DNA from: Alphaproteobacteria bacterium
Lineage (GTDB): Bacteria > Pseudomonadota > Alphaproteobacteria > SMXP01
DNA: 64,000 bases
Direction: 5' to 3'
Assembly: GCA_965214255.1 (NCBI GenBank)
Contig: OZ243948.1
Span: forward strand, 1,974,803-2,038,802
A program made the position numbers and the translations under genes. The notes under the pieces are model-generated. The model was not told where the DNA came from, did not search any database, and saw nothing but the letters and a program-made list of their open reading frames with translations. Shown piece by piece: positions 15,299 through 41,029 of this stretch (the stretch's first letter is position 1; each line of letters begins with the position of its first letter).

Positions 15299-15322
15299 CC
15301 GCCGGCTCCGGGCGCGGCGCCC

Positions 15323-16567: not shown

Positions 16568-16577
16568 CGGCGGCCCG

Positions 16578-17474: not shown

Positions 17475-17527
17475 GGCTTTCGTCTCCGATGACGCGAACG
17501 GCTCGTCGTGCCGACGGGCCGCCGCCC

Positions 17528-17586
17528 GCTCTTGCCCGTGCGGGCAGGACATAGTACCAGACATCAGGCACTGGACAGGGGGCGTC
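17528..17586 (+). promoter_or_regulatory. Junction-cassette core, partial copy 0 (dyad TGCCCG-tg-CGGGCA plus GGACATAGTACCAGACAT), in the divergent SMP-30/island promoter region
   Basis: The dyad is at 17533-17546 and the GGACATAGTACCAGACAT repeat at 17547-17564. The same block recurs at 20979, 23849, 28396 and 30859. Its function is unknown; a promoter or operator role is inference. Confidence 0.35.
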
Positions 17587-18888
17587 ATGAACGAAACCGC
17601 ACCGCCCGCGACCGCATCTTCCGGCGGACCCTCCGCCGCCCGAAAACTGTCGCTGTTATATCTGCCGGGGTTTCATGAGGTCGAGAAGCTGGAAGACCAG
17701 TACGCCCGCATGCTCTGGTACGTTTCTCCCATGTTGGAGGACGTGGGGACGATTTCTCTGGCGACGGGGTTCGACCCTCCCGCCGCGTTGGCGCTCCCGG
17801 ACTATGCCGACCCCGCGGTCGCCGACCTGAAAGACGGTTTCGAGGGGCTCATCGAGTATTTCGACGCGGACGACCTCGACGCCTGGCGGCGGCGTCTGGA
17901 TGCGGCGGACGTCGTCCTCCACTGGGACACGGCCTCGCCCTTTTCCCGAAGACAGGACATCAAGTCCGCGCTTGCCGCCAAGACAGTCTACCCGGTCGAT
18001 CCGCAGAACCAGCGCCGCGAAGGCTCCTTCTACATCTTTCTCTCCCGCGACCACAACGGCGCCGCCCGCCAAGACCTGGCGGCGTCCCGGGACAAGTTCG
18101 CGGGGATGCTCGACGACATCGGCCGCCATGACAAGGCGTACGTGTTCGGCACCGGCCCGTCTCTGGGTCGGGTCATGGACATGGACCTGTCCGACGGCGT
18201 GGCCGTCGCCTGCAACAGCATGGTCAGGAACCGCCCCCTTATGAGACACCTGCGCCCGAAGATCATCGCTCTCGCCGACCCCATATTCCATGCGGGGTTT
18301 TCCCGCTACGCCGGCGTCTTCCGGCGGCATCTGTACGAGGCGCTGGACGACCACGGCTGTTATCTGGTGGTCTTGTTCCGCGACTACCGGCTCTACATGC
18401 GCCATCTTCCCCCCCGGTTTCGGGACCGGCTCATCGGCATCCCCCTCCGCAAGAGCGAAACCCCGAACCTGTGTCTTTCGGACGATTTCAACGTCACCGC
18501 CGCTTTGAACGTCCTGACGCTGCTGCTGCTCCCCCTGGCGTGCACCCTGGCCGGAGAGGTGAACATCGCCGGCTGCGACGGGCGAAAGCTCGAAGACGAC
18601 CGATATTTCTGGGACCACCACCGGGAGTCGCAGATCAACGACGAGATGGACTCCATCAAAAAAGCGCACCCGTCCTTTTTCGACAAGGTCGACTACAACG
18701 ATTACTATCGCGAGCATGTCGCGGTGCTCGAAAAGTGGCTGACCGCGGGAGAGGAAACAGGCAAAGTGTTCCGCAACCTGACGCCGTCGCATATTCCCTG
18801 TCTCGAAAGCAGGTCGAAACCGCCCTCCCTCCTGTCGCGGTCGCTCGCGCGTCTTGGCGCCCTCGCCGCGCTTGTGCGAAAGTCGTAA
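17587..18888 (+). CDS. DUF115 / MptE-like (Maf-type) putative glycosyl- or nonulosonate-transferase, stand-alone copy
   Basis: 433 aa from the ATG at 17587 (MNETAPP). It has a DUF115-like core KAYVFGTGPSLGRV...VAVACNSMV...PKIIALADP. It is near-identical to the C-terminal 415 aa of the 21091-23739 ORF. The family call comes from motif recollection, not from a search. Confidence 0.65.
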   Translation: MNETAPPATASSGGPSAARKLSLLYLPGFHEVEKLEDQYARMLWYVSPMLEDVGTISLATGFDPPAALALPDYADPAVADLKDGFEGLIEYFDADDLDAWRRRLDAADVVLHWDTASPFSRRQDIKSALAAKTVYPVDPQNQRREGSFYIFLSRDHNGAARQDLAASRDKFAGMLDDIGRHDKAYVFGTGPSLGRVMDMDLSDGVAVACNSMVRNRPLMRHLRPKIIALADPIFHAGFSRYAGVFRRHLYEALDDHGCYLVVLFRDYRLYMRHLPPRFRDRLIGIPLRKSETPNLCLSDDFNVTAALNVLTLLLLPLACTLAGEVNIAGCDGRKLEDDRYFWDHHRESQINDEMDSIKKAHPSFFDKVDYNDYYREHVAVLEKWLTAGEETGKVFRNLTPSHIPCLESRSKPPSLLSRSLARLGALAALVRKS

Positions 18889-18898
18889 AGATAAAGTC

Positions 18899-20866
18899 AT
18901 GAAGATCATGGACAACGACCGGGAGCCGGAGGCGGCGAAGATGACGAAGCGGGCGCCGTCCCCCGTCAAGGAGACGGGCGGGTTGAAAGACTTGCTGCGC
19001 TGGCCCGTCCGCCCGTTCGCGCGGACATGGCTGACGAGCCCGACCGTCGCCGTTCTCGCTCTCGGCCTGGGCCTGACCTTCGCGGGGCTGTCCGACGCAG
19101 CGTGGAGCATGTGGCTCGACATGTGGCTCACCGGCGCGGGGTTGGCTCTCGTCGGGTTCGTCATCGTCAAGGAGGGCCTCCTTTGGCGCTGGATGGACAG
19201 ACGGTTGCGGGCCGAGGAACGCGAGCATGCGGCCAAGGCGCTTGCGGACGAGCGCAGCCGCACGGCGCAGGAGTTGACGAAGAGGCTGGCGCAAGCGCTG
19301 GCCGAGGAACGCGCACGCTCGGATCGGGCGTTGACGGAGTCGCTGGCGGCGGAGCGCGAGCATGCGGCCAAGGCGCTTGCGGACGATCGCGCCCGCGCGG
19401 CCAAAGCGCTGGCCGAGGAACGCGACCGTGCGGGGCAGGAGTTGACGAAGACGTTGGCAGAGGCTCTGGCGGAGGAGCGCGCCCGTGCGGAGCAGGAGTT
19501 GGCGAAGACGTTGGCGCAAGCGCTGGCCGAGGAACGCGCACGCTCGGATCGGGCGTTGACGGAGTCGCTGGCGGCGGAGCGCGAACATGCGGCCAAGGCG
19601 CTTGCGGACGATCGCGCCCGCGCGGCCAAAGCGCTGGCCGAGGAACGCGACCGTGCGGGGCAGGAGTTGACGAAGACGTTGGCGGCGGAACGCGCCCGCG
19701 CGGATCGGGCGTTAACGGAGTCGTTGGCGACGGAACGCCGCCGCGCGAGGCGGGAGTTGACCAAGGCGCTGGCGGCGGAGCGCCGCGCCGCGGGGCGGGC
19801 GTCGACGGAGGCGCCCGGCCAACCCGCAATCACCGTCGGCGTCGCCTGTTACAACGCCGCCCCCTATCTCGAACAGTGCATCGGCTCGCTGCTCAAACAG
19901 ACCTTCGGCGACTTCGAGATCGTCGCCGTCGACGACGGCTCGACGGACGACACCGCGGCGATACTGGACGAGTTCGCGCGGACAAGCGACCGGCTGCGCG
20001 TGTTTCACCAGGGCAACGAGGGGCCGGGCCCCGCCAGGAACCTCATTCTCGAAGCGGCCCGGGGCGAATATATCACCTTCGTGGACGCCGACGACTGGCT
20101 GGCGCCCCACTGTCTCGAAGCGGTCCATGACCGCGCCGTTCGCGACGATCTGGACATCCTGTGTTTCGGCTGGGTTCTTGTCGACCATGACGGCGGCGGC
20201 AAGATCGCGCGCCGGTCGGATTACAAGAAGCTCCGCTTCGACCGCCCCGACGAGATGCGGCGGCATGCCTTTGCCGGGCGGATCAAAGCGATAGGCTGCG
20301 CCTCGCTGGTCCGCGCCGCCCTGTTCCATGACCACGGCCTGCGCTATCCGGCCTGTTGGCATGAAGACATGTCCGTGACGCCTTTTCTGTATTTCTACGC
20401 GCAGCGGCACGGATATCTGGACGACGAGTTGTATTTTTGGCGCAAGAGACCGGAGTCGATCACCCACCGCGCGGTCGGCAAGGACCATATCGACGGCATG
20501 ATCGGGGCGTTCCATGAATGGAAGACCCGCCTATTGAGCGAAGGCCGGTTCGACGACTTTCGCGCCTCGTTCGTTGCCGGCGTTTTTGCCTACATGTCCT
20601 ACTTGCTCGGACGCATCGAGGATTCGGATGTCGACCCCGCCCCCCTGGTCGCGTATTTGAGGAACGAAGCGGCGGCGTTCCCGGAGTTGAGGAAATATCG
20701 ACAATATCTTCCCCCCGAGGAAATCCAAGATTACGCGAAGGTGATAGAGACCCTGGTGGACAACGGTCAGGCCGCGTCTGCCGTCTCCGCGCCCTCGCGG
20801 CGTCGGGGACGGGCGGCCGCTGAAAAAGATGTCCGGTCGCCCCCCCCCGCATTGAGCGGCGATTGA
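18899..20866 (+). CDS. Membrane hairpin - 208-aa helical stalk - GT2 glycosyltransferase
   Basis: 655 aa from the ATG at 18899 (MKIMDND). Two predicted TM helices are LTSPTVAVLALGLGLTFAGL and LTGAGLALVGFVIV. An E/R/A-rich repeat runs aa 100-307. The GT2 core has ITVGVACYN...VAVDDGSTDDT...FVDADDW. Confidence 0.85.
   Translation: MKIMDNDREPEAAKMTKRAPSPVKETGGLKDLLRWPVRPFARTWLTSPTVAVLALGLGLTFAGLSDAAWSMWLDMWLTGAGLALVGFVIVKEGLLWRWMDRRLRAEEREHAAKALADERSRTAQELTKRLAQALAEERARSDRALTESLAAEREHAAKALADDRARAAKALAEERDRAGQELTKTLAEALAEERARAEQELAKTLAQALAEERARSDRALTESLAAEREHAAKALADDRARAAKALAEERDRAGQELTKTLAAERARADRALTESLATERRRARRELTKALAAERRAAGRASTEAPGQPAITVGVACYNAAPYLEQCIGSLLKQTFGDFEIVAVDDGSTDDTAAILDEFARTSDRLRVFHQGNEGPGPARNLILEAARGEYITFVDADDWLAPHCLEAVHDRAVRDDLDILCFGWVLVDHDGGGKIARRSDYKKLRFDRPDEMRRHAFAGRIKAIGCASLVRAALFHDHGLRYPACWHEDMSVTPFLYFYAQRHGYLDDELYFWRKRPESITHRAVGKDHIDGMIGAFHEWKTRLLSEGRFDDFRASFVAGVFAYMSYLLGRIEDSDVDPAPLVAYLRNEAAAFPELRKYRQYLPPEEIQDYAKVIETLVDNGQAASAVSAPSRRRGRAAAEKDVRSPPPALSGD
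19196..19819 (+). repeat. Stalk-coding repeat region (11/15/19-residue ER-x-R-A units), with a 225-bp tandem duplication
   Basis: Positions 19291-19458 match 19516-19683 with a single mismatch. The offset is 225 bp, or 75 aa (15+11+11+19+19). Confidence 0.9.
20840..20848 (+). repeat. Homopolymeric C9 tract (in the 3' tail of the 18899-20866 ORF)
   Basis: Read directly as ccggtcg-C9-gc. It is homologous to the ccggtcg-Cn context of the cassettes at 28373 and 30808. Confidence 0.9.
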
Positions 20867-21090
20867 CCGGATCCCCGCATATTTCCGGGGTGCCGTCCAT
20901 GAGTCGAACGGATTCGGAGACGAGTGAGGGAAAGACCCCCCCCCGGCGTGACCGCTCCGTTTTTCCGCCGCCCGGTCTTGCCCGTTCGGGCAGGACATAG
21001 TACCAGACATGGTACCGGACATGGCGGCGTCATCGCGGCGTCTTCCTCCGGGAGACATCCGCGCTTGCGCGAAAGTCATAAAGATAAGTC
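20867..21090 (+). promoter_or_regulatory. Junction cassette copy 1 (head remnant, C9 at 20936-20944, dyad TGCCCG-tt-CGGGCA at 20979-20992, 12-mer direct repeats at 20993-21024)
   Basis: It aligns by eye with 23740-23936, 28290-28520 and 30723-30935. It has 2.5 units of RGACATRGTACC. Its function is unknown. Confidence 0.4.
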
Positions 21091-23739
21091 ATGGAGATCA
21101 TGGACAACGGTCGCGACGCGCCGAAGGCGATGGAGGAAGCGCCCGTCGAGGCGCGCGGCATGAGAGACTTGTCGCAGCGCCCAGCCCGCGCGTTCATGCG
21201 CCATTGGCTGGCGAGTCCGACCGTCGCCGTTCTCGCTCTCGGCCTGGGCCTGACCTTCGCGGGGCTGTCCGACCTGGCGTCGAGCATGGGGCTCGACATG
21301 TGGCTCGCCGGGGCGGGGTTGGCTCTCGTCGGTCTGGTCATCTTCAAGGAGAGCGCCGTTTGGCGCTGGATGCGCGAGCGGGACCTGGAGATCGAGCGCG
21401 AGCGCGCGTCGCGGGAATTGAGAGAAGCGCTGGCGGCGGAACGCGACCGTGCGAGGCGGGCGTTGGGGCAAGCTCTGGCGGAGGAACGCGCCCGCGCGGA
21501 GCAAGGGTTGACGAGGACATCCGGCCAACCCGCAATCACCGTCGGCGTCGCCTGTTACAACGTCGCGCCCTATCTCGAACGATGTATCGGCTCGCTGCTC
21601 GACCAGACCTTCGACGACTTCGAGATCGTCGCCGTCGACGACGGGTCGGCGGACGACACCGCCTCGATCCTCGACGGGTTGGAACGCGCAAGCGGCAAGG
21701 TCCGCGTGCTTCGCCAGGAAAACAGGGGTCTGGGCGCCGCCAGGAACCGTATTCTCGAACAGGCCCGGGGCGAATATATCACCTTCGTGGACGGCGACGA
21801 CTGGCTGGCGCCCCACTGTCTCGAAGCGGTCCATGACCGCGCCGTTCGCGACGATCTGGACATCCTGTGTTTCGGCTGGGTTCTTGTCGACCATGACGGC
21901 GGCGGCAAGATCGCGCGCCGGTCGGATTACAAGAAACTCCGCTTCGACCGCCCCGACGAGATGCGGCAGAACGCCTTTGCCGGGCGGATCAAAGCGATAG
22001 GGTGCGCCTCGCTGGTCCGCACCGCCCTGTTCCACGACCACGGCCTGCGCTATCCGGCCTGTCTGCATGAAGACATGTACGTGACGCCTTTTCTGTATTT
22101 CTACGCCCAGCGGCACGGACGCCTGGACGACGATTTGTATTTCTGGCACAAGAGACCGGATTCGATCACCCAACGAGCGGTCGGCAAGGACCATATCGAC
22201 GGCATGGTCGGGGCGCTCCATTCATGGAAGGGCCGGTTATGGGCCGAGGGCAAGTTCGACGATTTCCGCGCCTCGTTCGTTGCCGGCCTCTTTGCCTACA
22301 TGTCCTACTTCCTCGCACGCATCGAGCGTTCGGACGGCGACCGCGACGCCCTGGTCGCGTATTTGAGGGACGAAGCGGCGGCGTTCCCGGAGTTGAGGAA
22401 ATACAAGCACTATCTTTCCCCCGAGGAAATCCGATATTACGCGAAGGCGATAGAGACCCTGGTGGACAACCGCCGGCCCGCCGCCGCCCGAAAACTGTCT
22501 CTGTTATATCTGCCGGGGTTTCATGAGGTCGAGAAGCTGGAAGACCAGTACGCCCGCATGCTCTGGTACGTTTCTCCCATGTTGGAGGACGTGGGGACGA
22601 TTTCTCTGGCGACGGGGTTCGCCCCTCCCGCCGCGTTGGCGCTCCCGGACTATGCCGACCCCGCCGTCGCCGACCTGAAAGACGGCTTCGAGGGTCTCAT
22701 CGATTATTTCGACGCGGACGACCTCGACGCCTGGCGTCGGCGTCTGGATGCGGCGGACATCGTCCTCCACTGGGATACGGCCTCGCCCTTTTCCCGAAGA
22801 GAGGACATCAAGTCCGCGCTTGCTGCCAAGAAAGTCTACCAGGTCGACCCGGTAAACTGGTTGTGGGCCGGAGACCTCTACCTTTTTCTCTCCCATGACC
22901 ACAACGGCGCCGCCCGCCAAGACCTGGCGGCGTCCCGGGACAAGTTCGCGGGGATGCTCGACGACATCGGCCGCCATGACAAGGCGTACGTGTTCGGCAC
23001 CGGCCCGTCTCTGGGTCGGGTCATGGACATGGACCTGTCCGACGGCGTGGCCATCGCCTGCAACAGCATGGTCAGGAACCGCCCTCTTATGAAACACCTG
23101 CGCCCGAAAATCATCGTCGCGGCCGACCCCATATTCCATGCGGGGTTTTCCCGCTACGCCGGCGTCTTCCGGCGGCATCTGTGCGAGGCGCTGGACGACC
23201 ACGGCTGTTATCTGGTGGTGTTGTCCCGCGACTACCGGCTCTACATGCGCCATCTCCCCGCCCGGTTCCGGGACCGGCTCATCGGCATCCCGTCCCGCAA
23301 GAGCGAAACCCCGAGCCTGTGTCTCTCCGACGATTTCACCGCCTCCACCACGCGGAACGTCCTGACGTTTTTGATGCTCCCGCTGGCGTGCACCCTGGCC
23401 GGGGAGGTGAACATCGCCGGCTGCGACGGGCGAAAGCTTGAAGACGACCGATATTTCTGGGACCACCACCGGGAGTCGCAGATCAACGACGAGATGGACT
23501 CCATCAAAAAAGCGCACCCGTCCTTTTTCGACAAGGTCGACTACAACGATTACTATCGCGAGCATGTCGCGGTGCTCGAAAAGTGGCTGACCGCGGGAGA
23601 GGAAACAGGCAAAGTGTTCCGCAACCTCACGCCGTCGCATATTCCCTGTCTCGAAAGCAGGTCGAAGCCGCATTCGCTCGTATCGCGGGCGCTCGCGCGT
23701 CTTGGCGCTCGCGCCGCGTCGGCGAGGGGCGGACGATGA
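21091..23739 (+). CDS. Membrane hairpin - 51-aa stalk - GT2 - DUF115 fusion protein
   Basis: 882 aa (MEIMDNG...). It has the same TM hairpin, a short stalk (aa 95-145) and a GT2 core (VAVDDGSADDT, FVDGDDW). From ~aa 467 (AARKLSLLYLPGFHEVEKLEDQY) it carries a DUF115 module near-identical to 17641-18888. Confidence 0.85.
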   Translation: MEIMDNGRDAPKAMEEAPVEARGMRDLSQRPARAFMRHWLASPTVAVLALGLGLTFAGLSDLASSMGLDMWLAGAGLALVGLVIFKESAVWRWMRERDLEIERERASRELREALAAERDRARRALGQALAEERARAEQGLTRTSGQPAITVGVACYNVAPYLERCIGSLLDQTFDDFEIVAVDDGSADDTASILDGLERASGKVRVLRQENRGLGAARNRILEQARGEYITFVDGDDWLAPHCLEAVHDRAVRDDLDILCFGWVLVDHDGGGKIARRSDYKKLRFDRPDEMRQNAFAGRIKAIGCASLVRTALFHDHGLRYPACLHEDMYVTPFLYFYAQRHGRLDDDLYFWHKRPDSITQRAVGKDHIDGMVGALHSWKGRLWAEGKFDDFRASFVAGLFAYMSYFLARIERSDGDRDALVAYLRDEAAAFPELRKYKHYLSPEEIRYYAKAIETLVDNRRPAAARKLSLLYLPGFHEVEKLEDQYARMLWYVSPMLEDVGTISLATGFAPPAALALPDYADPAVADLKDGFEGLIDYFDADDLDAWRRRLDAADIVLHWDTASPFSRREDIKSALAAKKVYQVDPVNWLWAGDLYLFLSHDHNGAARQDLAASRDKFAGMLDDIGRHDKAYVFGTGPSLGRVMDMDLSDGVAIACNSMVRNRPLMKHLRPKIIVAADPIFHAGFSRYAGVFRRHLCEALDDHGCYLVVLSRDYRLYMRHLPARFRDRLIGIPSRKSETPSLCLSDDFTASTTRNVLTFLMLPLACTLAGEVNIAGCDGRKLEDDRYFWDHHRESQINDEMDSIKKAHPSFFDKVDYNDYYREHVAVLEKWLTAGEETGKVFRNLTPSHIPCLESRSKPHSLVSRALARLGARAASARGGR

Positions 23740-23936
23740 CCGAACGACGGCCTCCGAGACCCCCCCCCCGCGCCGCGCCCGCAGGCGCTCCCCCGCTCGG
23801 CCTTGAGCGCTTTCGGGGTTTCCGCTCCGTTTTCCCGCCGCCCGGTCTTGCCTGTGCGGGCGGGACATGGTACCGGACACGGTGCTGGACAGGGGGCGTC
23901 GTCGCGGCGTCTTTCCATTGGGCGGGGTCAAGGGTC
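23740..23936 (+). promoter_or_regulatory. Junction cassette copy 2 (C10 at 23760-23769, dyad TGCCTG-tg-CGGGCG at 23849-23862)
   Basis: It is homologous to the other cassette copies and ends in caagggtcATG, the start of the next ORF. Confidence 0.4.
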
Positions 23937-26900
23937 ATGAACCGAACAGGTGCGGCGATGAGCGAGGGAAAGACCGGTCCGCGCGCCCGCGCGGCTCGGG
24001 CGATGAGCGAAACGTCCGGTCGACCCGCGATCACCGTCGGCGTTCCCTGTTACAACGTCGCCCCCTATCTCGAACGATGTCTCGGCTCGCTGCTCGACCA
24101 GACCTTCGAAGACTTCGAGATCGTCGTCGTCAACGACGGGTCGACGGACGACACCGCCTTGATCCTCGACGAGTTTGCGCGGACAAGCGGCAGGATGCGC
24201 GTGCTTCACCAGGACAACAGGGGTCTGGGCCCCGCCAGGAACCGCGTTCTCGAAGCGGCCCGGGGCGAGTATGTCACCTTCGTGGACGGCGACGACTGGC
24301 TGGCGCCGCACTGTCTCGAAGCGGCCCATGACCGCGCCGCTCGCGACGATCTGGACATCCTGTGTTTCGGCTGGGTTCTTGTCGACCATGACGGCGCCCG
24401 AGCGGTTGGGAAGCGCCACGATCATTTGAAATTCCGTTTCGACCGCCCCGACGAACTGCGGCGGCATGCCTTTACCGGGCTGCTCAACCTGATGTCTTGC
24501 GCCTCGCTGGTCCGCACCGCCCTGTTCCATGACCACGGCCTGCGCTATCCGCCCTGTTGGCATGAAGACCTGTACGTGACGCCCTTTCTGCATTTGTACG
24601 CGCAGCGGCACGGATATCTGGACGACGGGTTGTATTTCTGGCGCAAGAGATCGGAGTCGATCACCCAACGAGCGGTCGGCAAGGACCATATCGACGGCAT
24701 GATCGGGGCGTTCCATTCATGGAAAGGCCGGTTATGGGCCGAGGGCCGGTTCGACGACTTTCGCGCCTCGTTCGTTGTCGGCGTCTTTGCCTACATGCTC
24801 CAATTGCTCCGGCGCATCGAGGCCTCGGACGTCGACCGCGGCGCCCTGGTGGCGCATTTGAGGGACGAAGCGGCGGCGTTCCCGGAGTTGAGGACATACA
24901 AGCACTATCTTTCCCACGGGGAACTCCGACATTACGCGAAGGTCATAGAGACCATGGTGGACAACCGCCGGGATGCGGCGGCGCCGAAGACGACGAAGCG
25001 GGCGCCGTCCCCCGTCAAGGAGACGGGCGGGTTGAAAGACTTGCTGCGCTGGCCCGTCCGCCCGTTCGCGCGGACATGGCTGACGAGTCCGACCGTCGCC
25101 GTTCTCGCTCTCGGCCTGGGCCTGACCTTCGCGGGGCTGTCCGGCTTGGCGTCGAGCATGTGGCTCGACATGGGTCTCGACATGGGTCTCGACATGTGGC
25201 TCACCGGGGCGGGGTTGGCTCTCGTCGGTCTGGTCATCGTCAAGGAGGGCCTCCTTTGGCGCTGGATGGACAGACGGTTGCTATCGGAAGAGCGCGAGCG
25301 TGCGGCCAAGGCGCTGGCGGACGAGCGCGACCGCGCGGGACAAGCGCTGGCCGAGGAACGCGCACGCTTGGATCGGGCGTTGGACCAAGGGTTGGCGGCG
25401 GAACGCGCCCGTGCGGGGCGGGAGTTGACGAAGACGCTGGCCGAGGAACGCGCACGCGCAGCCAAGGCGCTTGCGGACGAGCGCGCCCGTGCGGAGCAGG
25501 AGTTGACGAAGGCGTTGGGGCAAGCTCTGTCGGAGGAACGCGCCCGCGCGGACCGGGCGTTGACGGAGTCCTTGGCGGCGGAGCGCGAGCATGCGGCCAA
25601 GGCGCTTGCGGACGAGCGCAGCCGCACGGCGCAGGAGTTGACGAAGACGTTGGCCCAAGCTCTGTCGGAGGAACGCGCCCGTGCGGAGCAGGAGTTGACG
25701 AAGGCGTTGGGGCAAGCTCTGTCGGAGGAACGCGCCCGCGCGGACCGGGCGTTGACGGAGTCCTTGGCGGCGGAGCGCGAGCATGCGGCCAAGGCGCTTG
25801 CGGACGAGCGCGCCCGCGCGGCGCAGGAGTTGACGGAGTCGCTGGCGGCGGAGCGCGAACATGCGGCCAAGGCGCTGGCGGACGAGCACGCCCGCGCGGA
25901 GCAGGAGTTGGCGAAGACGTTGGCGCAAGCGCTGGCCGAGGAACGCGCACGCGCGGATCGGGAATTGAAAAAAGCGGTTGCCGCGGAGCGCGAGCATGCG
26001 GCCAAAGCGCTGGCCGAGGAACGCGACCGTGCGGGGCAGGAGTTGACGAAGACGTTGGCGCAAGCTCTGTCGGAGGAACGCGCACGCGCGGATCGGGCGT
26101 TAACGGAGGGGTTGGCGACGGAACGCGGCCGCGCGAGGCGGGAGTTGACCAAGGCGCTGGCGGCGGAGCGCCGCGCCGCGGGGCGGGCGTCGACGGAGGC
26201 GCCCGGCCAACCCGCAATCACCGTCGGCGTTCCCTGTTACAACGTCGCGCCCTATCTCGAACGATGTATCAGGTCGCTGCTCGAGCAGACCTTCGACGAC
26301 TTCGAGATCGTCGCCGTCGACGACGGGTCGACGGACGACACCGGGTCGCTGCTCGACGAGTTGGCGCGCGAAAGCGTCAGGATGCGCGTGCTTCACCAGG
26401 ACAACAGAGGTCTGGGCCCCGCCAGGAACCGTATTCTCGAACAGGCCCGGGGCGAGTATGTCACCTTCGTGGACGCCGACGACTGGCTGGCGCCCCACTG
26501 TCTCGAGACGGTCCATGACCGCGCCGTTCGCGACGATCTGGACATCCTGTGTTTCGGCTTCGTTCGAGTCGACAGTGACAGCGGCCGGGAAATCGCGCGC
26601 CGACAGGATTATAAGGGTCTCCGCTTCGACCGCCCCGGCGAGATACGGCAGCATGCCTTTGCCGGGCGGATCAACCTGATGTCTTGCGCCTCGCTGGTCC
26701 GCGCCGCCCTGTTTCACGACCACGGCCTGCGCTATCCGGCTTGTCTGCATGAAGACTTGTACGTGACGCCCTTTCTGCATCTGTACGCGGAGCGCCACGG
26801 ATATCTGGACGGCGAGTTGTATTTTTGGCTTGAAAGACCGGATTCGATCACCCGACGAGCGGTCGGCAGGGACCATATCGACGGCATGATCGGGGCGTTC

Positions 26901-30935: not shown

Positions 30936-33900
30936 ATGAACCGAACGGATACGGCGATGAGCGAGGGAAAGACCGGTCCGCGCGGCGGCGCGGCTCGGGC
31001 GGTGAGCGAAACGTCCGGCCAACCCGCGATCACCGTCGGCGTCGCCTGTTACAACGTCGCGCCCTATCTCGAACAGTGCATAAGGTCGCTGCTCGACCAG
31101 ACCTTCGACGACTTCGAGATCGTCGCCGTCGACGACGGCTCGACGGACGACACCGCCTCGATACTGGACGAGTTGGCGCGGACAAGCGGCAAGGTCCGCG
31201 TGGTCCGCCAGGACAACGAGGGGCCGGGCGCCGCCAGGAACCGCATTCTCGAACAGGCCCGGGGCGAATATATCACCTTCGTGGACGCCGACGACTGGCT
31301 GGCGCCGCACTGTCTCGAAGCGGCCCATGACCGCGCCGCTCGCGACGATCTGGACATCCTGTGTTTCGGCTGGGTCCGCGTCGACCATGCCGCCGCCCGA
31401 GTGATCGAGCGCCGGTCGGATTATAAGGGTCTCCGCTTCGACCGCCCCGACGAGATACGGCAGAAAGCCATTGCCGGGCGGCTCAATCTGATGGTTTGCG
31501 CCTCGCTGTTCCGCACCGCCCTGTTCCACGACCACGGCCTGCGCTATCCGGCAGGTCTGTATGAAGACATGTACGTGACGCCCTTTCTGTATCTGTACGC
31601 GGAGCGGCACGGATATCTGGACGACGAGTTGTATTTCTGGCGCAAGAGACCGGATTCGATCACCCAACGAGCGGTCGGCAAGGACCATATCGACGGCATG
31701 GTCGGGGCGTTCCATGAATGGAAAGCCCGCCTGTCGAGGGAAGGCCGGTTCGGCGACTTTCGCGCTTCGTTCGTCCTCGGCGTTGTTGCCTACATGTCCC
31801 AATTGCTCCGGCGCATCGAGGATGCGGACGTCGACCGCGCGGCGCCGGTCCGCCGCCCCGTCGTTGGCGACGCCCTGGTGGCGTATTTGAGAGACAAGGC
31901 GCGGTCGTTCCCGGAGTTGGCGAAATATCGACAATATCTTTCCCTTCAGGAAACCCGTGCTTACGCAAAAGTCATAGAGATCATGGACGACGAGGACGCG
32001 GCGGGCGGGGACGAGCCGGCGTTCGTCGGCCAATACGAGCATCTGCGTTACGCCAACAAGGCCCTGCGGGACGCCCTGGCGGGCCTGGAGGTCAACGAGG
32101 ACCCGGGGACCGTCTTCGATTTTTGCTTCGCCCCCCTCAACGACTATCATGTACGCACGGCGGTCCCCATCGCGGACCGCCTTCGACGGCAGGGGTTCAG
32201 CGTCTGTTTCGTGGACTTCACGCGGGTGGGCCGCGACGAGGGCGTGCGAACGGCGGTCGCGGAGTTGGAGGAGGAACGCTGCCACGATATCTGCGCGTTC
32301 ATAGCCTCCAATCACGGCTTCAGAAACCTGATCGTGTTCAACGATTGGAGCATGCAGACGACGTATCCCCTGGTGCTGGACGCCCGAGACGCCGGGGCGG
32401 CGACGGTCGGCTTCGTCGAGGGGATAAACGATTTCAACGACGTCGACACGGGGCGCTGGCGCAACGCTTACCGCGCCGTCGAGTGGGTGCTTGGCGCCGG
32501 AAACGACGACCGCCAATACTTCCCGGGGTACGGGGGAAAGTTCCGGGTCGCCGGGTTCCCGCGCATCGCCGAGTCGCTCCGGCGCCCGCCGCCGCCGCCC
32601 GCCCGCGAGCGCGCGGTCATCAACGTCAATTTCACCTACGGCGTCCTGGAAGACCGGCGGGACGACTGGCTCGCCTCGGCGATAGAGGGGTGCCGGTTGG
32701 CGAACCTGGACTGGGTGATCTCCCGGCATCCGGCGGAGACGGGCGACCTTTCCGGGCGCCCGTCGGACCCGAGAGGGTTCGCGGACCTGATGGAGGAAAA
32801 CGCGGTCCTTATCAGCCGCTTCAGTTCGTGCATCGTCGAAGCCCTGGCCATGGGCCGCGCCGTCGTCTATCACAATCCGGATATCGAGAGGGTGGCGAAG
32901 TTTCAGGACCCACGCGGCGCTTACAGCGTCAGCCGCGACGCTCGAAGCCTGGCGGCCGCGCTCCGCTTCGAATTGGATCGACTGGGAAGCGTGCCGGCGC
33001 GCAGAAACGGGTTTCTGGCCCATCACTGCGACGTTTCCGCGAATTTCGACCCCTGTCAAAAGGCCGCTCGAATTTTAAGGCAAATCGACGAAGCGCCCCG
33101 GGGTCCGGCGCGGGACGCGGACGTGAACCCGTCTCCCGACTGGTTTCGCTGTTCGCGGGACCGGCATGCCGCGCTCGAGGAAACCCGCGTGGTCGCGGCA
33201 TTTCTCGACGACCTGCCCGCCGGCTCCGTCATGGTCGATGTCGGCGCGGCCAGCGGCGGCGCCCTTGCGCCGTTCCTGGAGCGGGAATGGAGAGTCTTCG
33301 CCTTCGAGCCCGACCCGGAGAACCGCGCGCGGCTGCAGCGAGAACACGGTCATCGCGCGCCGCTGACCGTCGACGCCCGCGCCCTCGGCGGCGAGCCCGC
33401 CGCCAGCGCCGCCTTCTACTCTTCCCGGGAGAGCCCATTCATCGGCAGTTTGCAGGCGTTCACCGACGGCCATGAGCGCGCCGGGGACGTCGAGGTGACG
33501 ACCTTGAGTCATGTGGCGAAGGAGCACGGCCTCCGACGGATCGACGTGCTCAAGATCGACGCCGAGGGGTACGATCTGATGGTGCTCGAGGGCGCGCCGT
33601 GGGACGAGATAAGGCCGCGGGTCATCGTCTGCGAATTCGAGGACGCCAAGACGACGCGGTTGGGCTACACGTTCCACGATCAGGCGAGGTTTCTGGCGGA
33701 CAAGGGCTACACGGTTTTCGTGAGCGAGTGGTATCCGGTCGTGCGCTACGGTATGCGGCACGACTGGCGGCGCCTGGCCCCCTACCCCTGCCGGCTGGAA
33801 AGCTCGAACGCATGGGGCAACCTGATCGCTTTCCGCTCGGCGCCGGATCCGGACGCTTTGAGGGCCGCCGTCGAGACGAGTCTCGGCAAGGCGGCGGAGG

Positions 33901-34466
33901 CGGCGCGGGTGACGAAGGGGCCGCCGCCGAAGGCGACGGAGGAGGCCGGAGGCCCCGTCGAGGCGCGCGGCATGAGAGACTTGTCGCAGCGCTCCGCCCG
34001 CGCGTTCATGCGCGATTGGCTGACGAGCCCGACCGTCGCCATGCTCGCTCTCGGCCTGGGCCTGACCTTCGCGGGGCTGTCCGACCTGGCGTCGAGCATG
34101 GGGCTCGACATGTGGCTCGACATGTGGCTCACCGGGGCGGGGTTGGCTCTCGTCGGGTTCGTCATCTTCAAGGAGAGCGTCGTTTGGCGCTGGATGCGCG
34201 AGCGGGACCGGGAGGTCGAGCGCGCCCGCGCGGACCGGGAATTGAAAGAAGCGCTGGCGGCGGAACGCCGCCGCGCGAGCCAGGCGTTGACCAAGGCGCT
34301 TGCGGACGAGCGCCGCCGCGCGGGGCAGGAATTGAAGAAGGCGGTGGCGGCGGAGCGCAAACGTGCCGAGCGGGCGTTGACCGAAACGTCGGTCCTCCCC
34401 GCCCTGCGGGGGGGGGGCGAGGCCGTCGTGACCTGTAGCGCGCCGCCGACGGACTTTCGAGAGTGA
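30936..34466 (+). CDS. GT2 - GT-B-like domain - FkbM-family methyltransferase - membrane hairpin - short stalk
   Basis: 1176 aa. The GT2 core has VAVDDGSTDDT and FVDADDW. The ~350-aa middle domain is of uncertain family; it contains ISRHPAE, and GT-B / capsule-synthesis-like is only a guess. The FkbM-like block is VDVGAASGG...VFAFEPDPEN...IDVLKIDAEGYDLMVLEG. The TM hairpin is at ~34020-34180 and is followed by a ~63-aa helical stalk. Confidence 0.8.
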   Translation: MNRTDTAMSEGKTGPRGGAARAVSETSGQPAITVGVACYNVAPYLEQCIRSLLDQTFDDFEIVAVDDGSTDDTASILDELARTSGKVRVVRQDNEGPGAARNRILEQARGEYITFVDADDWLAPHCLEAAHDRAARDDLDILCFGWVRVDHAAARVIERRSDYKGLRFDRPDEIRQKAIAGRLNLMVCASLFRTALFHDHGLRYPAGLYEDMYVTPFLYLYAERHGYLDDELYFWRKRPDSITQRAVGKDHIDGMVGAFHEWKARLSREGRFGDFRASFVLGVVAYMSQLLRRIEDADVDRAAPVRRPVVGDALVAYLRDKARSFPELAKYRQYLSLQETRAYAKVIEIMDDEDAAGGDEPAFVGQYEHLRYANKALRDALAGLEVNEDPGTVFDFCFAPLNDYHVRTAVPIADRLRRQGFSVCFVDFTRVGRDEGVRTAVAELEEERCHDICAFIASNHGFRNLIVFNDWSMQTTYPLVLDARDAGAATVGFVEGINDFNDVDTGRWRNAYRAVEWVLGAGNDDRQYFPGYGGKFRVAGFPRIAESLRRPPPPPARERAVINVNFTYGVLEDRRDDWLASAIEGCRLANLDWVISRHPAETGDLSGRPSDPRGFADLMEENAVLISRFSSCIVEALAMGRAVVYHNPDIERVAKFQDPRGAYSVSRDARSLAAALRFELDRLGSVPARRNGFLAHHCDVSANFDPCQKAARILRQIDEAPRGPARDADVNPSPDWFRCSRDRHAALEETRVVAAFLDDLPAGSVMVDVGAASGGALAPFLEREWRVFAFEPDPENRARLQREHGHRAPLTVDARALGGEPAASAAFYSSRESPFIGSLQAFTDGHERAGDVEVTTLSHVAKEHGLRRIDVLKIDAEGYDLMVLEGAPWDEIRPRVIVCEFEDAKTTRLGYTFHDQARFLADKGYTVFVSEWYPVVRYGMRHDWRRLAPYPCRLESSNAWGNLIAFRSAPDPDALRAAVETSLGKAAEAARVTKGPPPKATEEAGGPVEARGMRDLSQRSARAFMRDWLTSPTVAMLALGLGLTFAGLSDLASSMGLDMWLDMWLTGAGLALVGFVIFKESVVWRWMRERDREVERARADRELKEALAAERRRASQALTKALADERRRAGQELKKAVAAERKRAERALTETSVLPALRGGGEAVVTCSAPPTDFRE
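34408..34417 (+). repeat. Homopolymeric G10 tract near the 3' end of the 30936-34466 ORF
   Basis: Read directly as ctgc-G10-cgagg. It encodes RGGG in the linker after the stalk. Confidence 0.9.
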
Positions 34467-34475
34467 ACGCCCGCC

Positions 34476-35408
34476 ATGAGCGCCGTGTCCATCGTCATCC
34501 GCGCCCTGAACGAGGCCGCCCACCTGCCCGCGCTGTTCGACGGACTCGCCCGCCAGACCCGCAAGCCCGAGGAAGTCATCGTCGTCGATTCGGGCTCGAC
34601 CGACGACACGGTGGCCCTCGCCGAGCGCGCCGGGGCGCGCGTGATCGCGATCGCGCCGTCGGCCTTCACCTTCGGGCGCGCCCTCAATGTCGGCTGCGCC
34701 GCGGCGGCGGGCGAGCTTCTGGTGTTCACCAGCGCCCATGTCTATCCCGCCGACGAGTACTGGCTCGAGCGCTTGACCGCGCCGCTGGAGGCGCACGGCG
34801 ATACGGCCCTCGTCTACGGAGGCCAGACCGGCGACGAGCGCAGCGCCTTTTCCGAGTTGGAGATCATGCGGCGGTGGTTTCCCGCCGAGTCGGACCCCGA
34901 TCAGGCCCACCCCTTCTGCAACAACGCCAACTGCGCGGTGCGGGCCTCGGTGTGGGCGACGCATCCCTACGACGAGGAGTTGACCGGGCTCGAGGACATC
35001 GCGTGGGCCTTTCAGGTCCAGCAGGACGGCCATCGGATCCGCTACCAGGCCGACGCGGTCATCGTCCACGTGCATGAGGAACGGTTCGATCAAATCGTCA
35101 ATCGATACCGCCGGGAAGCGATCGCCCACAAGAGGATATTCGGCCATCACAGGATGTACGCCCCGGAGGCGCTCGGCCTGTTCGCCGCCAACACCGCGCG
35201 CGATTACCTCGCGGCCCTGCTGCAAGGCCGCTTTCTGGCCAATTTGTGGGGGATTCCGAAATTCCGCTTCGCCCAGTTCTGGGGAACGTGGCGCGGCTTT
35301 CGTCAGGTCGGCGAACCGTCGCGGGTGCTGAAACGCCGCTTCTATTATCCGCGGGGGTTCGTCTGGCGGCGCGGCAAAGCCCGGTTCGGGCCGTGGGGGC
35401 GCCCGTGA
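34476..35408 (+). CDS. Glycosyltransferase family 2 (divergent from the seven paralogous modules)
   Basis: 310 aa with VSIVIRALNEAAHL...VIVVDSGSTDDT...GLEDIAW. It lies in the same reading frame as the preceding ORF, separated by a TGA plus 9 nt. Confidence 0.85.
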   Translation: MSAVSIVIRALNEAAHLPALFDGLARQTRKPEEVIVVDSGSTDDTVALAERAGARVIAIAPSAFTFGRALNVGCAAAAGELLVFTSAHVYPADEYWLERLTAPLEAHGDTALVYGGQTGDERSAFSELEIMRRWFPAESDPDQAHPFCNNANCAVRASVWATHPYDEELTGLEDIAWAFQVQQDGHRIRYQADAVIVHVHEERFDQIVNRYRREAIAHKRIFGHHRMYAPEALGLFAANTARDYLAALLQGRFLANLWGIPKFRFAQFWGTWRGFRQVGEPSRVLKRRFYYPRGFVWRRGKARFGPWGRP

Positions 35409-36073
35409 ACGTCGTCGCCTTCGTTCCCATGCGCCATGACAGCGAGCGCGTGCCCGGAAAGAACTATCGACCGCTCAACGGCCGCCCCCTGTTCCATCAT
35501 ATGGTCCTCGCGCTGCTCGCATGTCCTGAGGTCGTCCGCATCGTCATAGACACCGACAGCCCGACCGTGGCGGAACAGTGCGCGGCCCAATTCCCGTCCG
35601 TCGAGGTGATCGACCGCCCCCGGCGCCTGCGCGGCGGCGGCGTCCCGATGACCGAGGTGCTGCGCCACGCCGCCGCCGTCGTCGACAGCCCCTGGTATCT
35701 TCAGACCCACTCCACCAGCCCGCTGCTGCGCGCCGAGACCGTCTCGCGGGGCCTCGAGGCTCTCGAACGGAGTCTGGACCGCCACGATTCCCTGATGTCC
35801 GTGACCCGCTTGCAGACCAGGCTTTACGACGCCGACGCGCGGCCGCTCAATCACGACCCCAAAGTCCTGCTGCGCACCCAGGACCTGCCGCCCGTTTTCG
35901 AGGAGAACTCCGGCATGTACGTGTTCACGCGGGAGCAGATCGCGGAGGGGCGGCGCTTCGGCGACCGGCCCCTGCTGTTCGAGATCGACCCGGTCGAGGC
36001 CGTCGACATCGACGAGGAGGCGGATTTCGCGCTGGCCGAGGCGCTGCACCGCCTCCGGGACGGCGCGCCGTGA
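35405..36073 (+). CDS. Acylneuraminate cytidylyltransferase-family (CMP-sugar synthetase, NeuA/KdsB-like) protein
   Basis: 222 aa from the GTG at 35405, with a GTGA overlap with the upstream stop. The N-terminus VAFVPMRHDSERVPGKNYRPLNGRPL is typical of the CTP_transf_3 family. Confidence 0.8.
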   Translation: MNVVAFVPMRHDSERVPGKNYRPLNGRPLFHHMVLALLACPEVVRIVIDTDSPTVAEQCAAQFPSVEVIDRPRRLRGGGVPMTEVLRHAAAVVDSPWYLQTHSTSPLLRAETVSRGLEALERSLDRHDSLMSVTRLQTRLYDADARPLNHDPKVLLRTQDLPPVFEENSGMYVFTREQIAEGRRFGDRPLLFEIDPVEAVDIDEEADFALAEALHRLRDGAP

Positions 36074-37017
36074 AGGTCGCCGTCACCTGCCTGCAACTCA
36101 TCCGCGACCTCGACGACGTGCGCGGCGCGATGGAGGCCGCCGGGCTGACGCTGCGCGTGCCCGAGATCGAGGGCCAGCATCTCGAAGGGGACGACCTGGT
36201 CGCCGCGCTGGAGGGCTGCGTCGGCGTCGTCGCCGGCGACGACCGCTTCACCGCGCCGGTGCTGGACCGGCTGCCCGACCTGCGGGCGATCTCGAAATGG
36301 GGCGTGGGCCTGGACGGCATCGACCGCGACGCGGCGGCGGCGCGGGGCGTCTCCGTCTCCAATACGCCGGGCATGTTCGACGACGAGGTCGCGGACGTGG
36401 CCATGGCCTACACCGTCATGCTGCTGCGCCGCCTGCACGCGGTCCATGACGGCGTGGCGCGGGGTGAGTGGCCCAAGCCCGCGGGGCGCTCCGCCGCGGG
36501 GCTGCGGATGGGTATCGTCGGCTTGGGCGGCATCGGCCGGGCCCTGGCGCGCCGCGCCCTGGCCGCGGGCATGGACGCCGTCGGGACCGACCCGTCGCCC
36601 GAGAGCCGGGCGCTGGCGGAGGCCGCCGGCGCGGCCGTCGTCTCCCTCGACGAGGTGCTGTCGACCGGCGACGTGGTGTCCCTGCACTGCCCGCTGACCC
36701 GCGACACCCGTCACCTTCTCGACGCCGACCGTCTTGCCGCGATGAAGCCGGGCGCCTTCGTCGTCAACACCGGCCGCGGCGGCCTGATCGACACGGCGGC
36801 GCTGGCGGCGGCCCTTCGTTCCGGGCGTCTCGCGGGGGCCGCCCTCGACGTGTTCGAGGACGAGCCGCCGGGCCCCTCGAACCCCATACGCGGCTGCGGC
36901 AACGTGATTCTGGGCTCCCACAACGCCTCCAACACGCGCCAGGCGTCCGCGCGCACCCACCGCCGGGCGGTCGCCAACCTGGCCCGGGCGCTCGGTCTTC
37001 AGGTCCGCTTCCCATGA
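36070..37017 (+). CDS. D-isomer-specific 2-hydroxyacid dehydrogenase (phosphoglycerate dehydrogenase-like)
   Basis: 315 aa from the GTG at 36070, with a GTGA overlap. It has the NAD motif GIVGLGGIGRALARR and the catalytic-region motif NTGRGGLID...GAALDVFE. Confidence 0.85.
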   Translation: MKVAVTCLQLIRDLDDVRGAMEAAGLTLRVPEIEGQHLEGDDLVAALEGCVGVVAGDDRFTAPVLDRLPDLRAISKWGVGLDGIDRDAAAARGVSVSNTPGMFDDEVADVAMAYTVMLLRRLHAVHDGVARGEWPKPAGRSAAGLRMGIVGLGGIGRALARRALAAGMDAVGTDPSPESRALAEAAGAAVVSLDEVLSTGDVVSLHCPLTRDTRHLLDADRLAAMKPGAFVVNTGRGGLIDTAALAAALRSGRLAGAALDVFEDEPPGPSNPIRGCGNVILGSHNASNTRQASARTHRRAVANLARALGLQVRFP

Positions 37018-37754
37018 GACGGGTCGTCATCACCGGCGCCTGCGGCGGGATCGGACGGGCCGCGGCATCGGCGTTCGCCGCGCGCGGCTGGCGGGTGATC
37101 GGCGTCGACCGTCGGGGGCCGGAGCCGGACCTCGCCTTCGACCGCTTCGAACTCGCGGACCTCGGCGCGGAGGGCGCGGTCGCGTCCCTGTTCTCCCGCC
37201 TGTCCAACGAGGGATCCTTGGCGGCGCTGGTCAACAACGCCGCCGTCGGCCTGGACAAGCCCCTGCGCGAGACCACCGACGCCGACTGGGCGCGGGTGAT
37301 GAACGTGAACCTGCGCGCCGCGTTCCAGTGCATCCGCGAGTCCCGTCCGATGCTGGCCGCGGGCCGCGGCGCCGTGGTCAATGTCGGCTCGGTGCACGCC
37401 GTCGCGACCTCGGCCAACGTCGCCGCCTACGCGGTGACCAAAGGCGCGCTCTCCACCCTCACGCGCTCCGCGGCGCTCGAACTCGCCGCGGACGGGGTAC
37501 GGTGCAACGCCGTCCTGCCCGGCGCGGTCGATACGCCGATGCTGCGGCAGGGTCTGTCGCGCCGCCCCCATCCCGACGGGGCCGAGGGCAACCTTCGGGA
37601 CCTGACCGCGCGCACGCCCCTGGGGTTCGTCGCCGCGCCGGAACATATCGCGCCGGTCATTTATTTCCTTGCCGACGGCGAGCAGTCGCCCTACATAACC
37701 GGACAGTCGCTCGTCGCCGACGGCGGGGCCACGCTCAGGCTCGCCACCGAGTGA
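37014..37754 (+). CDS. Short-chain dehydrogenase/reductase (SDR)
   Basis: 246 aa from the ATG at 37014, with an ATGA overlap. It has TGACGGIGRA, NNAAV and YAVTKGAL (YxxxK). Confidence 0.85.
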   Translation: MRRVVITGACGGIGRAAASAFAARGWRVIGVDRRGPEPDLAFDRFELADLGAEGAVASLFSRLSNEGSLAALVNNAAVGLDKPLRETTDADWARVMNVNLRAAFQCIRESRPMLAAGRGAVVNVGSVHAVATSANVAAYAVTKGALSTLTRSAALELAADGVRCNAVLPGAVDTPMLRQGLSRRPHPDGAEGNLRDLTARTPLGFVAAPEHIAPVIYFLADGEQSPYITGQSLVADGGATLRLATE

Positions 37755-37791
37755 CGCGCCGCGGCGCCGCCCCGAAGGAGAACCGTTGTCC

Positions 37792-39638: not shown

Positions 39639-39651
39639 GAATAGCCGACCT

Positions 39652-40981: not shown

Positions 40982-41029
40982 GGGCGGGCGGATGCTGCCG
41001 TCGGGCCCCCGGACCTTCGCGCTGAAGAC

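Follow-up and report, generated by a model that had tools for sequence, protein, structure and literature searches.

The 64-kb stretch of DNA considered here (the window, to whose positions all coordinates refer) belongs to contig OZ243948.1 of the Alphaproteobacteria bacterium assembly GCA_965214255.1. Between 17.5 and 37.8 kb it carries an island of ten co-directional genes on the + strand, O1 to O10, with coding-type GC content at third codon positions (GC3, 0.77-0.88). The first six open reading frames, O1-O6, encode seven modules of glycosyltransferase family 2 (GT2), five two-helix membrane anchors, each with a helical stalk, two O1-type modules and, both within O6, one GT-B-fold module and one FkbM methyltransferase; the order in which the original prediction had arranged these modules is reproduced exactly by the translations and Pfam. 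We consider it probable that the island serves cytoplasmic-face assembly and decoration of a lipid-linked surface polysaccharide, which would be exported by a Wzm/Wzt transporter encoded elsewhere in the genome. Relatives of the island proteins lie beside Wzm/Wzt genes, some of which carry a Wzt_C domain, indicating a lipid-linked polysaccharide rather than flagellin. Searches of the 64-kb window for wzm/wzt, wzx/wzy and flagellin genes found none, as the original prediction had stated. That prediction had also left the substrate unnamed: it remains true that no acceptor gene lies in the window, but the Wzm/Wzt genes of the relatives favour a lipid-linked polysaccharide.

The seven GT2 modules (M1-M7, ~307 amino acids each) are 71-82% identical at the protein level and 81-94% identical at the DNA level, always in register; a further DNA comparison gave 82-90%. 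Each matches PF00535 with an E-value of 1e-36 to 1e-37 (cut-off 23.3 bits), and the stand-alone O7 likewise scores above the cut-off of this family. The motifs [DN]DGS[TA]D and FVD[AG]DDW, reported earlier to be kept in every copy, are indeed present in 7/7 modules, with DDGS/NDGS and D[AG]DD invariant in the alignment. Variation is concentrated in columns 111-160, which follow the DxD motif, and in the helices of the C-terminus; the donor-binding part is conserved. The best matches of the module are NF007482 (E 2e-31), GalT1 (5HEA), chondroitin synthase and TarS (5TZE). With TarS/TarP-type and WaaH-like enzymes it shares a GT-A domain with DxD followed by a helical C-terminal extension; nevertheless, it scores ~110 versus 423 bits, far under every equivalog cut-off, and no enzyme of either type carries a fused transmembrane hairpin with a stalk. 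Relatives at 47-52% identity comprise about a dozen metagenomic proteins, and 1 of 185,579 species genomes contains a relative at 50% or more, a gammaproteobacterial metagenome-assembled genome (L004). The other 79 loci of the species-genome scan were discarded as generic actinobacterial or firmicute GT2 genes (30-37% identity).

The five anchors, with a mean column identity of 80% in their alignment, each consist of two hydrophobic segments of ~19 residues, flanked by basic residues and joined by an acidic loop of W, L, D and M. This is the hairpin described by the original prediction, whose argument for a cytoplasmic location of the enzymes is upheld by the basic flanks, the acidic loop and the need of all the enzymes for cytoplasmic donors. 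The loop, which is predicted to be periplasmic, contains (W/G)LDM units encoded by 12-nt tandem repeats (25152-25196 and 34087-34130), with one unit in O2, O3 and O5, two in O6 and three in O4. A profile built from the five anchors matches only 14 of 1.84 billion cluster representatives, three of which are this window or its sister strain. The remainder are large proteins with GT2, FkbM, Methyltransf_24, polysaccharide pyruvyl transferase or a GT29-like stretch; together with sulfotransferase-like domains, these glycan-building and -modifying modules are the only ones to which an anchor of the window type was seen fused.

The stalks are made of 45-, 135- and 225-nt tandem repeats (in O5, 5.3 copies of a 135-nt, or 45-residue, repeat at 95% identity) and are composed of ~28% Ala, 16% Glu, 16% Arg and 12% Leu. 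Their hydrophobic residues recur with one sharp period of 3.75 (15/4), and no signal is seen at 3.5, as would suit a long amphipathic helix whose packing stripe is of the pentadecad rather than the heptad type; the stalks probably form a coiled coil of 15-residue periodicity. Between the window and L001, an assembly from another sample, the O2 stalk differs by 201 nt, being longer in the window, and the two strains are 97-98% identical. Thus, stalk length is polymorphic within essentially one species.

The stalk of O6 carries no module distally. The FkbM domain exceeds the curated cut-offs of both PF05050 (73.2 bits, E 4e-20; cut-off 22.7) and TIGR01444 (69 bits; cut-off 37.7), in line with the earlier assignment. 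For the central domain, Foldseek returned UDP-GlcNAc 2-epimerases, PimA and TagF at E ~1e-8, pointing to a GT-B fold; the underlying AlphaFold2 (AF2) model (pLDDT 58, 9 sequences) was used for the fold class only and gave generic GT-B matches only. A TagF-like CDP-polyol reading of this domain was considered and may apply. O6 is 53-55% identical over ~700 residues to the GT2-GT-B proteins of four related loci (L002, L003, L004 and L084).

The O1-type modules, in O1 itself and at the C-terminus of O3 (90% amino acid identity; ratio of nonsynonymous to synonymous substitutions, dN/dS, 0.39), had been labelled DUF115 by the original prediction. This label receives weak support: neither O1 nor the O3 C-terminus matches PF01973 at E<=0.01, and the gathering score of 34.6 bits is not reached, although PF01973 is the commonest sub-threshold Pfam match in the O1 family (6/22 members, best E 0.032). 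Alignment by hhalign of the O1 family with the MptE-like protein of locus L003 gave a probability of 4%, over a short G-x-D/HP-x-FF stretch only. More generally, Pfam, NCBIfam, PDB sequences (phmmer) and a PDB profile search yielded no significant match for O1. Its AF2 model, built with 22 homologues, has a pLDDT of 90 and two alpha/beta domains. The top Foldseek probabilities are to ST6GALNAC2 with cytidine monophosphate (CMP) (0.96) and to CstII (0.94; TMt 0.49), with weak E-values of ~0.01-0.02; since the model has two domains, the whole-model search is noisy, and it is the probability ranking rather than the E-value that points to sialyltransferases. No Maf structure is among the top 50 Foldseek matches. 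At best, O1 may be a distant, sialyltransferase-like relative of DUF115 that falls outside that family by the PF01973 threshold. The O1 family is without a Pfam model or name and comprises 27 clusters in the protein collection and at least 129 stretches in JGI metagenomes. Its C-terminal domain resembles Maf/DUF115 and GT42/GT29 enzymes in having GTGPS...N...GCDG-type motifs and a predicted sialyltransferase-like fold, but O1 has an additional N-terminal Rossmann-like domain, and, unlike in Maf systems, there are no flagellin or flagellar genes and no nonulosonic-acid synthase pathway in the window, while the related loci have Wzm/Wzt.

Downstream of O6, the O7-O10 genes, possibly with the SGL gene at the opposite border, appear to form a sugar-activation cassette. 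O7 is weakly similar to GpgS and MftF and has orthologues in L004 (82% identity) and in L085, a locus from a low-GC organism (42%); a look-up of O7 itself retrieved no record. O8 scores well above the PF02348 (CTP_transf_3) cut-off of 22.6 bits, as had been expected, and remains below the equivalog cut-offs of PseF (62 versus 205.7) and KdsB (24-32 versus 155-255); its nearest solved structures are NeuA (E 4e-12) and then KdsB. By these scores, O8 is a CMP-ulosonic/sialic-acid-synthetase-like family member. An SGL homologue with 35% identity adjoins the O7-O8-O9 cassette in L085 and in 4 metagenome loci, so that the SGL gene of the window is possibly part of the system. Judged by family-level functions only, the cassette probably makes a CMP-activated acidic sugar; it would be chemically coherent for an aldose to be converted into a CMP-2-ulosonic acid by the short-chain dehydrogenase/reductase (SDR), the SGL lactonase, the 2-hydroxyacid dehydrogenase and the cytidylyltransferase, in this order. 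The linkage of the O1 family to O8 and O9, combined with the NeuA-like character of O8 and the predicted sialyltransferase-like fold of O1, suggests that the O1 modules may transfer this CMP-activated acid sugar.

Among 37 O1-family metagenome loci of at least 10 kb, O8 is present in 25, O9 in 21 (found with O8), FkbM in 16 and O10 in 13, while O7, MptE-like proteins and Wzt-like ATPases each occur in 14. ABC2_membrane and ABC_tran genes, identified with Pfam, adjoin O1 homologues in L093, L099, L100 and L111, and Wzt_C is found in L099 and L167. In L003, wzm and wzt lie directly upstream of genes for a GT2, a GT2-GT-B-TM2-stalk-sulfotransferase-like protein (TM2, the two-helix transmembrane anchor), a methyltransferase-GT2 and a true MptE-like protein. 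The layout GT2-GT-B-anchor-short stalk-sulfotransferase-like recurs in P0005 and L004, whereas other proteins consist of GT2-anchor-stalk-sulfotransferase-like (P0004) or GT2-GT-B (P0006), and L084 encodes an anchor-stalk-unknown domain protein. In L085, where SGL-, O7-, O8-, O9- and O10-like genes are present, there are also three modules of the O1 type, one of them at the head of a 1530-residue protein with the order O1-like-GT2-FkbM-two transmembrane helices-coiled coil (~170 residues)-Methyltransf_24. L100 (1518 residues) and L093 (1199 residues) encode proteins of the same kind, [O1-like]-GT2-(FkbM)-two transmembrane helices-heptad-rich helix (~150-200 residues)-Methyltransf_24. In other taxa, relatives possess one O6-type protein and no array. 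Radical-SAM genes lie beside the O8/O9 cassette or the O1 homologue in L085 (3966-5396, B12-binding) and L088 (371-1585), which hints at additional sugar modification in some relatives.

An O6-type protein together with O7-O8-O9 emerges as the conserved core of this locus type, at ~80% identity in L004 and ~40% in L085. In L004, orthologues of O7, O8 and O9 with 79-82% identity follow right after the O6-type gene, indicating horizontal spread of the core. Compared with the 75-83% identity of the host HslU to its nearest named alphaproteobacteria, the identity of the L004 cassette (14933-17486) suggests a recent transfer. The flanks of the cassette in L004 (13435-14889 and 17523-19844) hold a sulfatase-family gene, an HAD-UbiA prenyltransferase fusion and a GtrA-like gene, which recall polyprenyl-phosphate-sugar decoration systems; none of these is present in the window.

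The array also bears the marks of its own history. At the junctions, the sequence that closes a GT2 module (YAKxIE-IMDN...) continues into the one that opens the following anchor protein (MKIMDN/MEIMDN), and remnants of the O4/O6-type N-terminus (MNRT.TAMSEGKTGP; MSRTDSETSEGKT) occur in the intergenic regions 28300-28520, 30730-30935 and 20870-21090, as traces of the fusions and deletions behind the current gene boundaries. In addition, a leader element of ~75 nt is present in five + strand copies (0 expected) located 29-100 nt upstream of O1, O3, O4, O5 and O6, and once in L001 (11889-11906). Its consensus is a hairpin, TCTTGCY-N4-CGGGCRGG, then ACATRGTACC; the hairpin has 9 bp (TCTTGCCCG-N-CGGGCAGGA) and precedes ACATAGTACCAGACATGGTAC, which holds a GTACC/GGTAC inverted repeat. 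The hairpin is conserved with almost no covariation (1 compensatory pair). No Rfam family matched anywhere in the window, and scans of the window for sigma-70 promoters and terminators yielded matches at chance level; the element may be a common promoter/operator or an RNA leader. Collectively, the junction sequences, the vestigial starts and the shared leader copies support an origin by duplication of an [anchor-stalk-GT2] unit.

Comparison of the window with L001 shows how this array continues to change. In the flanking housekeeping genes dS is 0.05-0.09 and dN/dS 0.08-0.34, whereas in the O2 GT2 module dS is 0.086, dN 0.064 and dN/dS 0.75. The same comparison reveals mosaic likeness to two paralogues, 88.3% to M1 and 88.6% to M2, and this combination of high between-strain dN with mosaicism is a signature of gene conversion, not of decay. 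Among the paralogous modules within the window dN/dS ranges from 0.52 to 0.90, and the closest pair shifts along the module. Gene conversion combined with diversification of the acceptor side best fits the variation seen in these alignments.

Given the repetitive nature of the region, we considered whether the seven GT2 modules could have arisen by collapse or duplication during assembly. This was rejected: the modules differ by 6-19% at the DNA level and hence are distinct copies rather than a collapsed or duplicated pile of reads. Assemblies from two other samples each confirm one border of the array. Window positions 8936-19358 are colinear with L001 at 97% and positions 19631-21320 at 93%, and L001 retains O1, O2 and the beginning of O3 in unchanged order; L168 is colinear with 33614-49641 at 98% identity. 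Both contigs terminate within or beside repeats, as expected of a true repeat array. For the array interior, the structure and copy number given here are those of the present assembly only, and the least secure copy number is that of the near-perfect 135-nt repeat in O5. Across the ~17 kb of the array there is no stop or frameshift.

Table 1. Genes, modules and leader elements of the island and its borders (window positions)
Feature	Position	Strand	Remarks
SGL (SMP-30/gluconolactonase-like)	16578-17588	-	PF08450, E 4e-69; borders island
Leader copies	17530-17558, 20976-21004, 23846-23874, 28393-28421, 30856-30884	+	
O1, stand-alone two-domain protein, 433 aa	17587-18888	+	no Pfam match
O2, anchor-stalk-GT2	18899-20866	+	anchor 18962-19195; 211-aa stalk 19196-19828; GT2 M1 19829-20749
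O3, anchor-stalk-GT2-O1-type	21091-23739	+	anchor 21139-21372; 54-aa stalk 21373-21534; M2 21535-22455; O1-type ~22477-23739
O4, GT2-anchor-stalk-GT2-GT2	~23937-28289	+	three PF00535 stretches; M3 24030-24950; anchor 25011-25268; 316-aa stalk 25269-26216; M4 26217-27137; M5 27240-28163
O5, anchor-stalk-GT2	28521-30722	+	anchor 28584-28817; 286-aa stalk 28818-29675; GT2 M6 29676-30599
O6, GT2-GT-B-FkbM-anchor-stalk	30936-34466	+	Pfam and NCBIfam, Foldseek; M7 31029-31979; GT-B ~32112-33095; FkbM ~33237-33713; anchor 33951-34196; stalk 34197-34463 (~65 aa)
O7, divergent stand-alone GT2	34476-35408	+	PF00535, E 5e-20
O8, cytidylyltransferase (CTP_transf_3)	35405-36073	+	PF02348, 100 bits
O9, D-2-hydroxyacid dehydrogenase	36070-37017	+	PF02826, E 6e-56
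O10, SDR, glucose/aldose 1-dehydrogenase-like	37014-37754	+	Pfam, NCBIfam; last island gene
Smr	37735-38277	-	followed by hslU; both called in L168

Two gene starts in Table 1 differ from those of the public calls. For O2 the public call begins at 18941 (P0001, 641 residues), and for O4 at 23736 (P0113, 1517 residues), as opposed to 23937 by likeness to the O6 N-terminus (MNRT..AMSEGKTGP). From the earlier start, O4 would overlap the O3 stop and translate the leader element into an extension rich in Pro, Arg and Ala. The O4 start is uncertain, 23937 being preferred because of the homology with O6. The island (16578-37754) lies between the core genes mltA and smr/hslU, and GC content climbs to 0.745 across O9-O10. 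The rest of the window is alphaproteobacterial housekeeping (parAB, gidA, mnmE, rho, secB, Tim44-like, mltA, hslVU, hisBHA and dnaKJ), and the best named relatives of HslU, at 75-83% identity, are from uncultured Alphaproteobacteria and Parvibaculaceae. Two ORFs of coding-like composition, at 289-1374 (+) and 58082-58672 (-), have no Pfam match.

Placing enzymes on helical spacers is an established theme in polysaccharide biosynthesis. Klebsiella pneumoniae O7 ORF6 is a terminator-coiled coil-2xGT2 protein, WbbB is similar, and the coiled coil is considered a marker of ABC (ATP-binding cassette)-transporter-dependent glycan assembly, scaffolding the polymerising glycosyltransferases and distancing the terminator from the membrane (PMC11231755). 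Our literature searches retrieved no description of the exact architecture found here, and database searches assigned it to no characterised or named family; to that extent the view of the original prediction that it is undescribed stands, but the principle of a stalk-borne GT2 is known (PMC11231755). The analogies with WbdD and WbbB drawn by that prediction are borne out by relatives with a methyl- or sulfotransferase distal on the stalk; in L085, L100 and L093, Methyltransf_24 lies distal to the stalk, a terminator placement as in WbdD, WbbB and ORF6-O7 (PMC11231755). Like ORF6-O7 and WbbB, the window proteins have a long helix between GT modules and other catalytic modules, with GT2 and stalk on one polypeptide. 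Further likenesses are the Wzm/Wzt locus type, some with Wzt_C, seen in the window's relatives (L003, L093, L099, L100, L111 and L167), and methyltransferase-type terminators (FkbM in the window, Methyltransf_24 in the relatives).

The differences are equally clear. ORF6-O7 and WbbB associate peripherally with the membrane, have a heptad stalk, occur as one stalk protein per locus and place the terminator distally, whereas the window proteins have a transmembrane hairpin, mid-protein or N-terminal, a stalk periodicity of 15/4, five paralogues of graded length, and distal modules that are GT2 (plus the O1-type in O3). Outside the generic GT2 fold no sequence similarity was detected between the two groups. 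WbdD of Escherichia coli O9a, a kinase-methyltransferase terminator on a coiled-coil ruler, likewise has a helical spacer tethered to the membrane, the length of which could control when an enzyme gains access to the growing chain, and termination by methylation, through FkbM, is also plausible in the window. Nevertheless, WbdD binds the membrane by a C-terminal amphipathic helix, recruits a separate polymerase, WbdA, and contains no GT, while the anchors of the window are predicted to be integral and its stalk proteins have GT modules and, by Pfam, no kinase domain. The window is a derived version of this scheme, with GT2 at the tips of four stalks and the O6-type protein at the membrane. The transmembrane hairpin anchor, the 15-residue stalk periodicity, the five graded stalks with distal GT2 and the conserved cassette, which probably makes a CMP-activated acid sugar, all look new.

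These features can be combined into a probable mechanism, in which the product would be O-antigen- or capsule-like. Five proteins would be fixed in the inner membrane by the two-helix hairpin, which leaves both ends on the cytoplasmic side, and each would extend a long alpha-helical stalk into the cytoplasm as a scaffold or spacer, similar to the coiled coils of WbdD, WbbB and ORF6. O6 would keep its GT2, GT-B and FkbM modules close to the membrane, and O2-O5 would hold near-identical GT2 modules at the distal ends of stalks of ~54, 211, 286 and 316 residues, with O3 adding an O1-type transferase; the distal enzymes might then reach the growing chain only at a matching chain length. O10, SGL, O9 and O8, with the O7 GT2, would probably yield the CMP-activated acidic sugar, and its addition as a cap or branch would probably fall to the sialyltransferase-fold O1 modules. 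The array presumably arose by tandem duplication of [anchor-stalk-GT2] and would still be changing by gene conversion and by expansion and contraction of the stalk repeats. Of this picture, the domain content, the conservation, the genomic associations and the polymorphism between strains are observed, while the lipid-linked substrate, the ruler function, the donor and the capping are inferred.

Several observations weigh against this interpretation. The 64-kb window is without a transporter, initiating transferase, ligase or acceptor gene, and the connection to Wzm/Wzt is through relatives only, within 10 kb in 14/37 loci. The distal enzymes of the window are GT2 rather than classic terminators and its sole methyltransferase is membrane-proximal, so the ruler logic may not be directly transferable. 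The stalks could be single helices rather than a coiled coil, the donor pathway is deduced from family-level annotations only, and dN/dS values of 0.5-0.9 among modules and 0.75 between strains would also agree with a loosening of constraint on copies that are redundant. The last point invites the alternative that most of the array is evolutionary debris, i.e., redundant, drifting duplicates, or partly artefactual in copy number, with a functional core limited to O6-O10 and O1. The contrast of these ratios with those of the flanking housekeeping genes would fit such a scenario, as would the single O6-type protein without an array in relatives from other taxa, the breaking of other assemblies within or beside the repeats, and the vestigial MNRT..AMSEGKTGP starts in intergenic regions. 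We nevertheless regard it as unlikely: the array is free of stops and frameshifts, with coding GC3 and intact catalytic motifs in all modules, the divergence between copies speaks against an assembly artefact, O1, O3, O4, O5 and O6 each retain a leader element, the second strain keeps O1, O2 and the O3 start in order, and the between-strain dN goes with the M1/M2 mosaic.

Polysaccharide assembly also has to be set against glycosylation of protein, in which O1 modules would act like Maf: flagellin, pilin or an S-layer protein would receive from them a nonulosonic-like sugar activated with CMP, and the resulting glycan would be extended by the GT2 modules. The resemblance of the O1 fold to CMP-dependent sialyltransferases, the PF01973 matches, weak as they are, the NeuA-like cytidylyltransferase within the island and the co-occurrence of true MptE-like proteins in related loci all accord with such a role. 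However, no flagellar, pilin or S-layer gene was found in the window or in the related loci inspected, and no NeuB/PseI-type synthase is present; the relatives adjoin Wzm/Wzt, some with Wzt_C, and tethered multi-GT proteins with methyl-, sulfo- and pyruvyl-transferases typify polysaccharide assembly, which leaves this alternative with little probability. An S-layer glycan built on a lipid carrier and exported by an ABC transporter would fit the lipid-linked polysaccharide explanation until the final transfer step. Least probable of all, in our judgement a very remote prospect, is a methylated glycan that is primed on a hydroxy-acid such as glycerate and stays inside the cell or at its membrane, comparable to the mycobacterial methylglucose and methylmannose polysaccharides. 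It would account for the FkbM methyltransferase, the membership of O9 in the glycerate/phosphoglycerate dehydrogenase family, the weak similarity of the O7 N-terminus to glucosyl-3-phosphoglycerate synthase (GpgS) and the lack of an exporter in the window, but the GpgS similarity is limited to the generic nucleotide-binding part (~100 residues, E ~1e-6), Wzm/Wzt and Wzt_C occur in relatives, and it is not obvious what a tether with graded stalks would do for a soluble polymer.

Within the lipid-linked polysaccharide explanation that we favour, a more far-reaching version deserves mention, although we hold it to be a long shot: graded rulers would set the heights of the GT2 modules, so that the chain is glycosylated or capped according to its length, with a new CMP-2-ulosonic route and a new sialyltransferase-fold family. 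Stalks of 54-316 residues would span roughly 8-47 nm if fully helical, and the acceptor-side loops have diverged. If true, the locus would represent a programme for a non-uniform polysaccharide that is encoded in space and needs no template. Stalk-repeat expansion and gene conversion would give rapid strain-to-strain antigenic variation, and the locus would include a hitherto undescribed way of converting an aldose into a CMP-2-ulosonic acid, the donor for a new sialyltransferase-fold family.

Finally, to our knowledge, template-free control of the length and end-structure of surface polysaccharides is understood in only a few enterobacterial models, with one coiled-coil ruler each. With five rulers of different length, integral membrane anchors and glycosyltransferases at the tips, such a locus would show whether more than one chain length can be encoded on the ruler principle, and the natural variation of the stalks through 45-nt repeats makes stalk-length engineering straightforward. 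Three parts of the system, the O1 family, the O7-O10 cassette (present in 25 of the 37 O1-family loci) and the anchor, are without a name or model in current databases. Annotating them would shed light on a kind of glycan locus that recurs in the environment and possibly on a new nucleotide-activated sugar.

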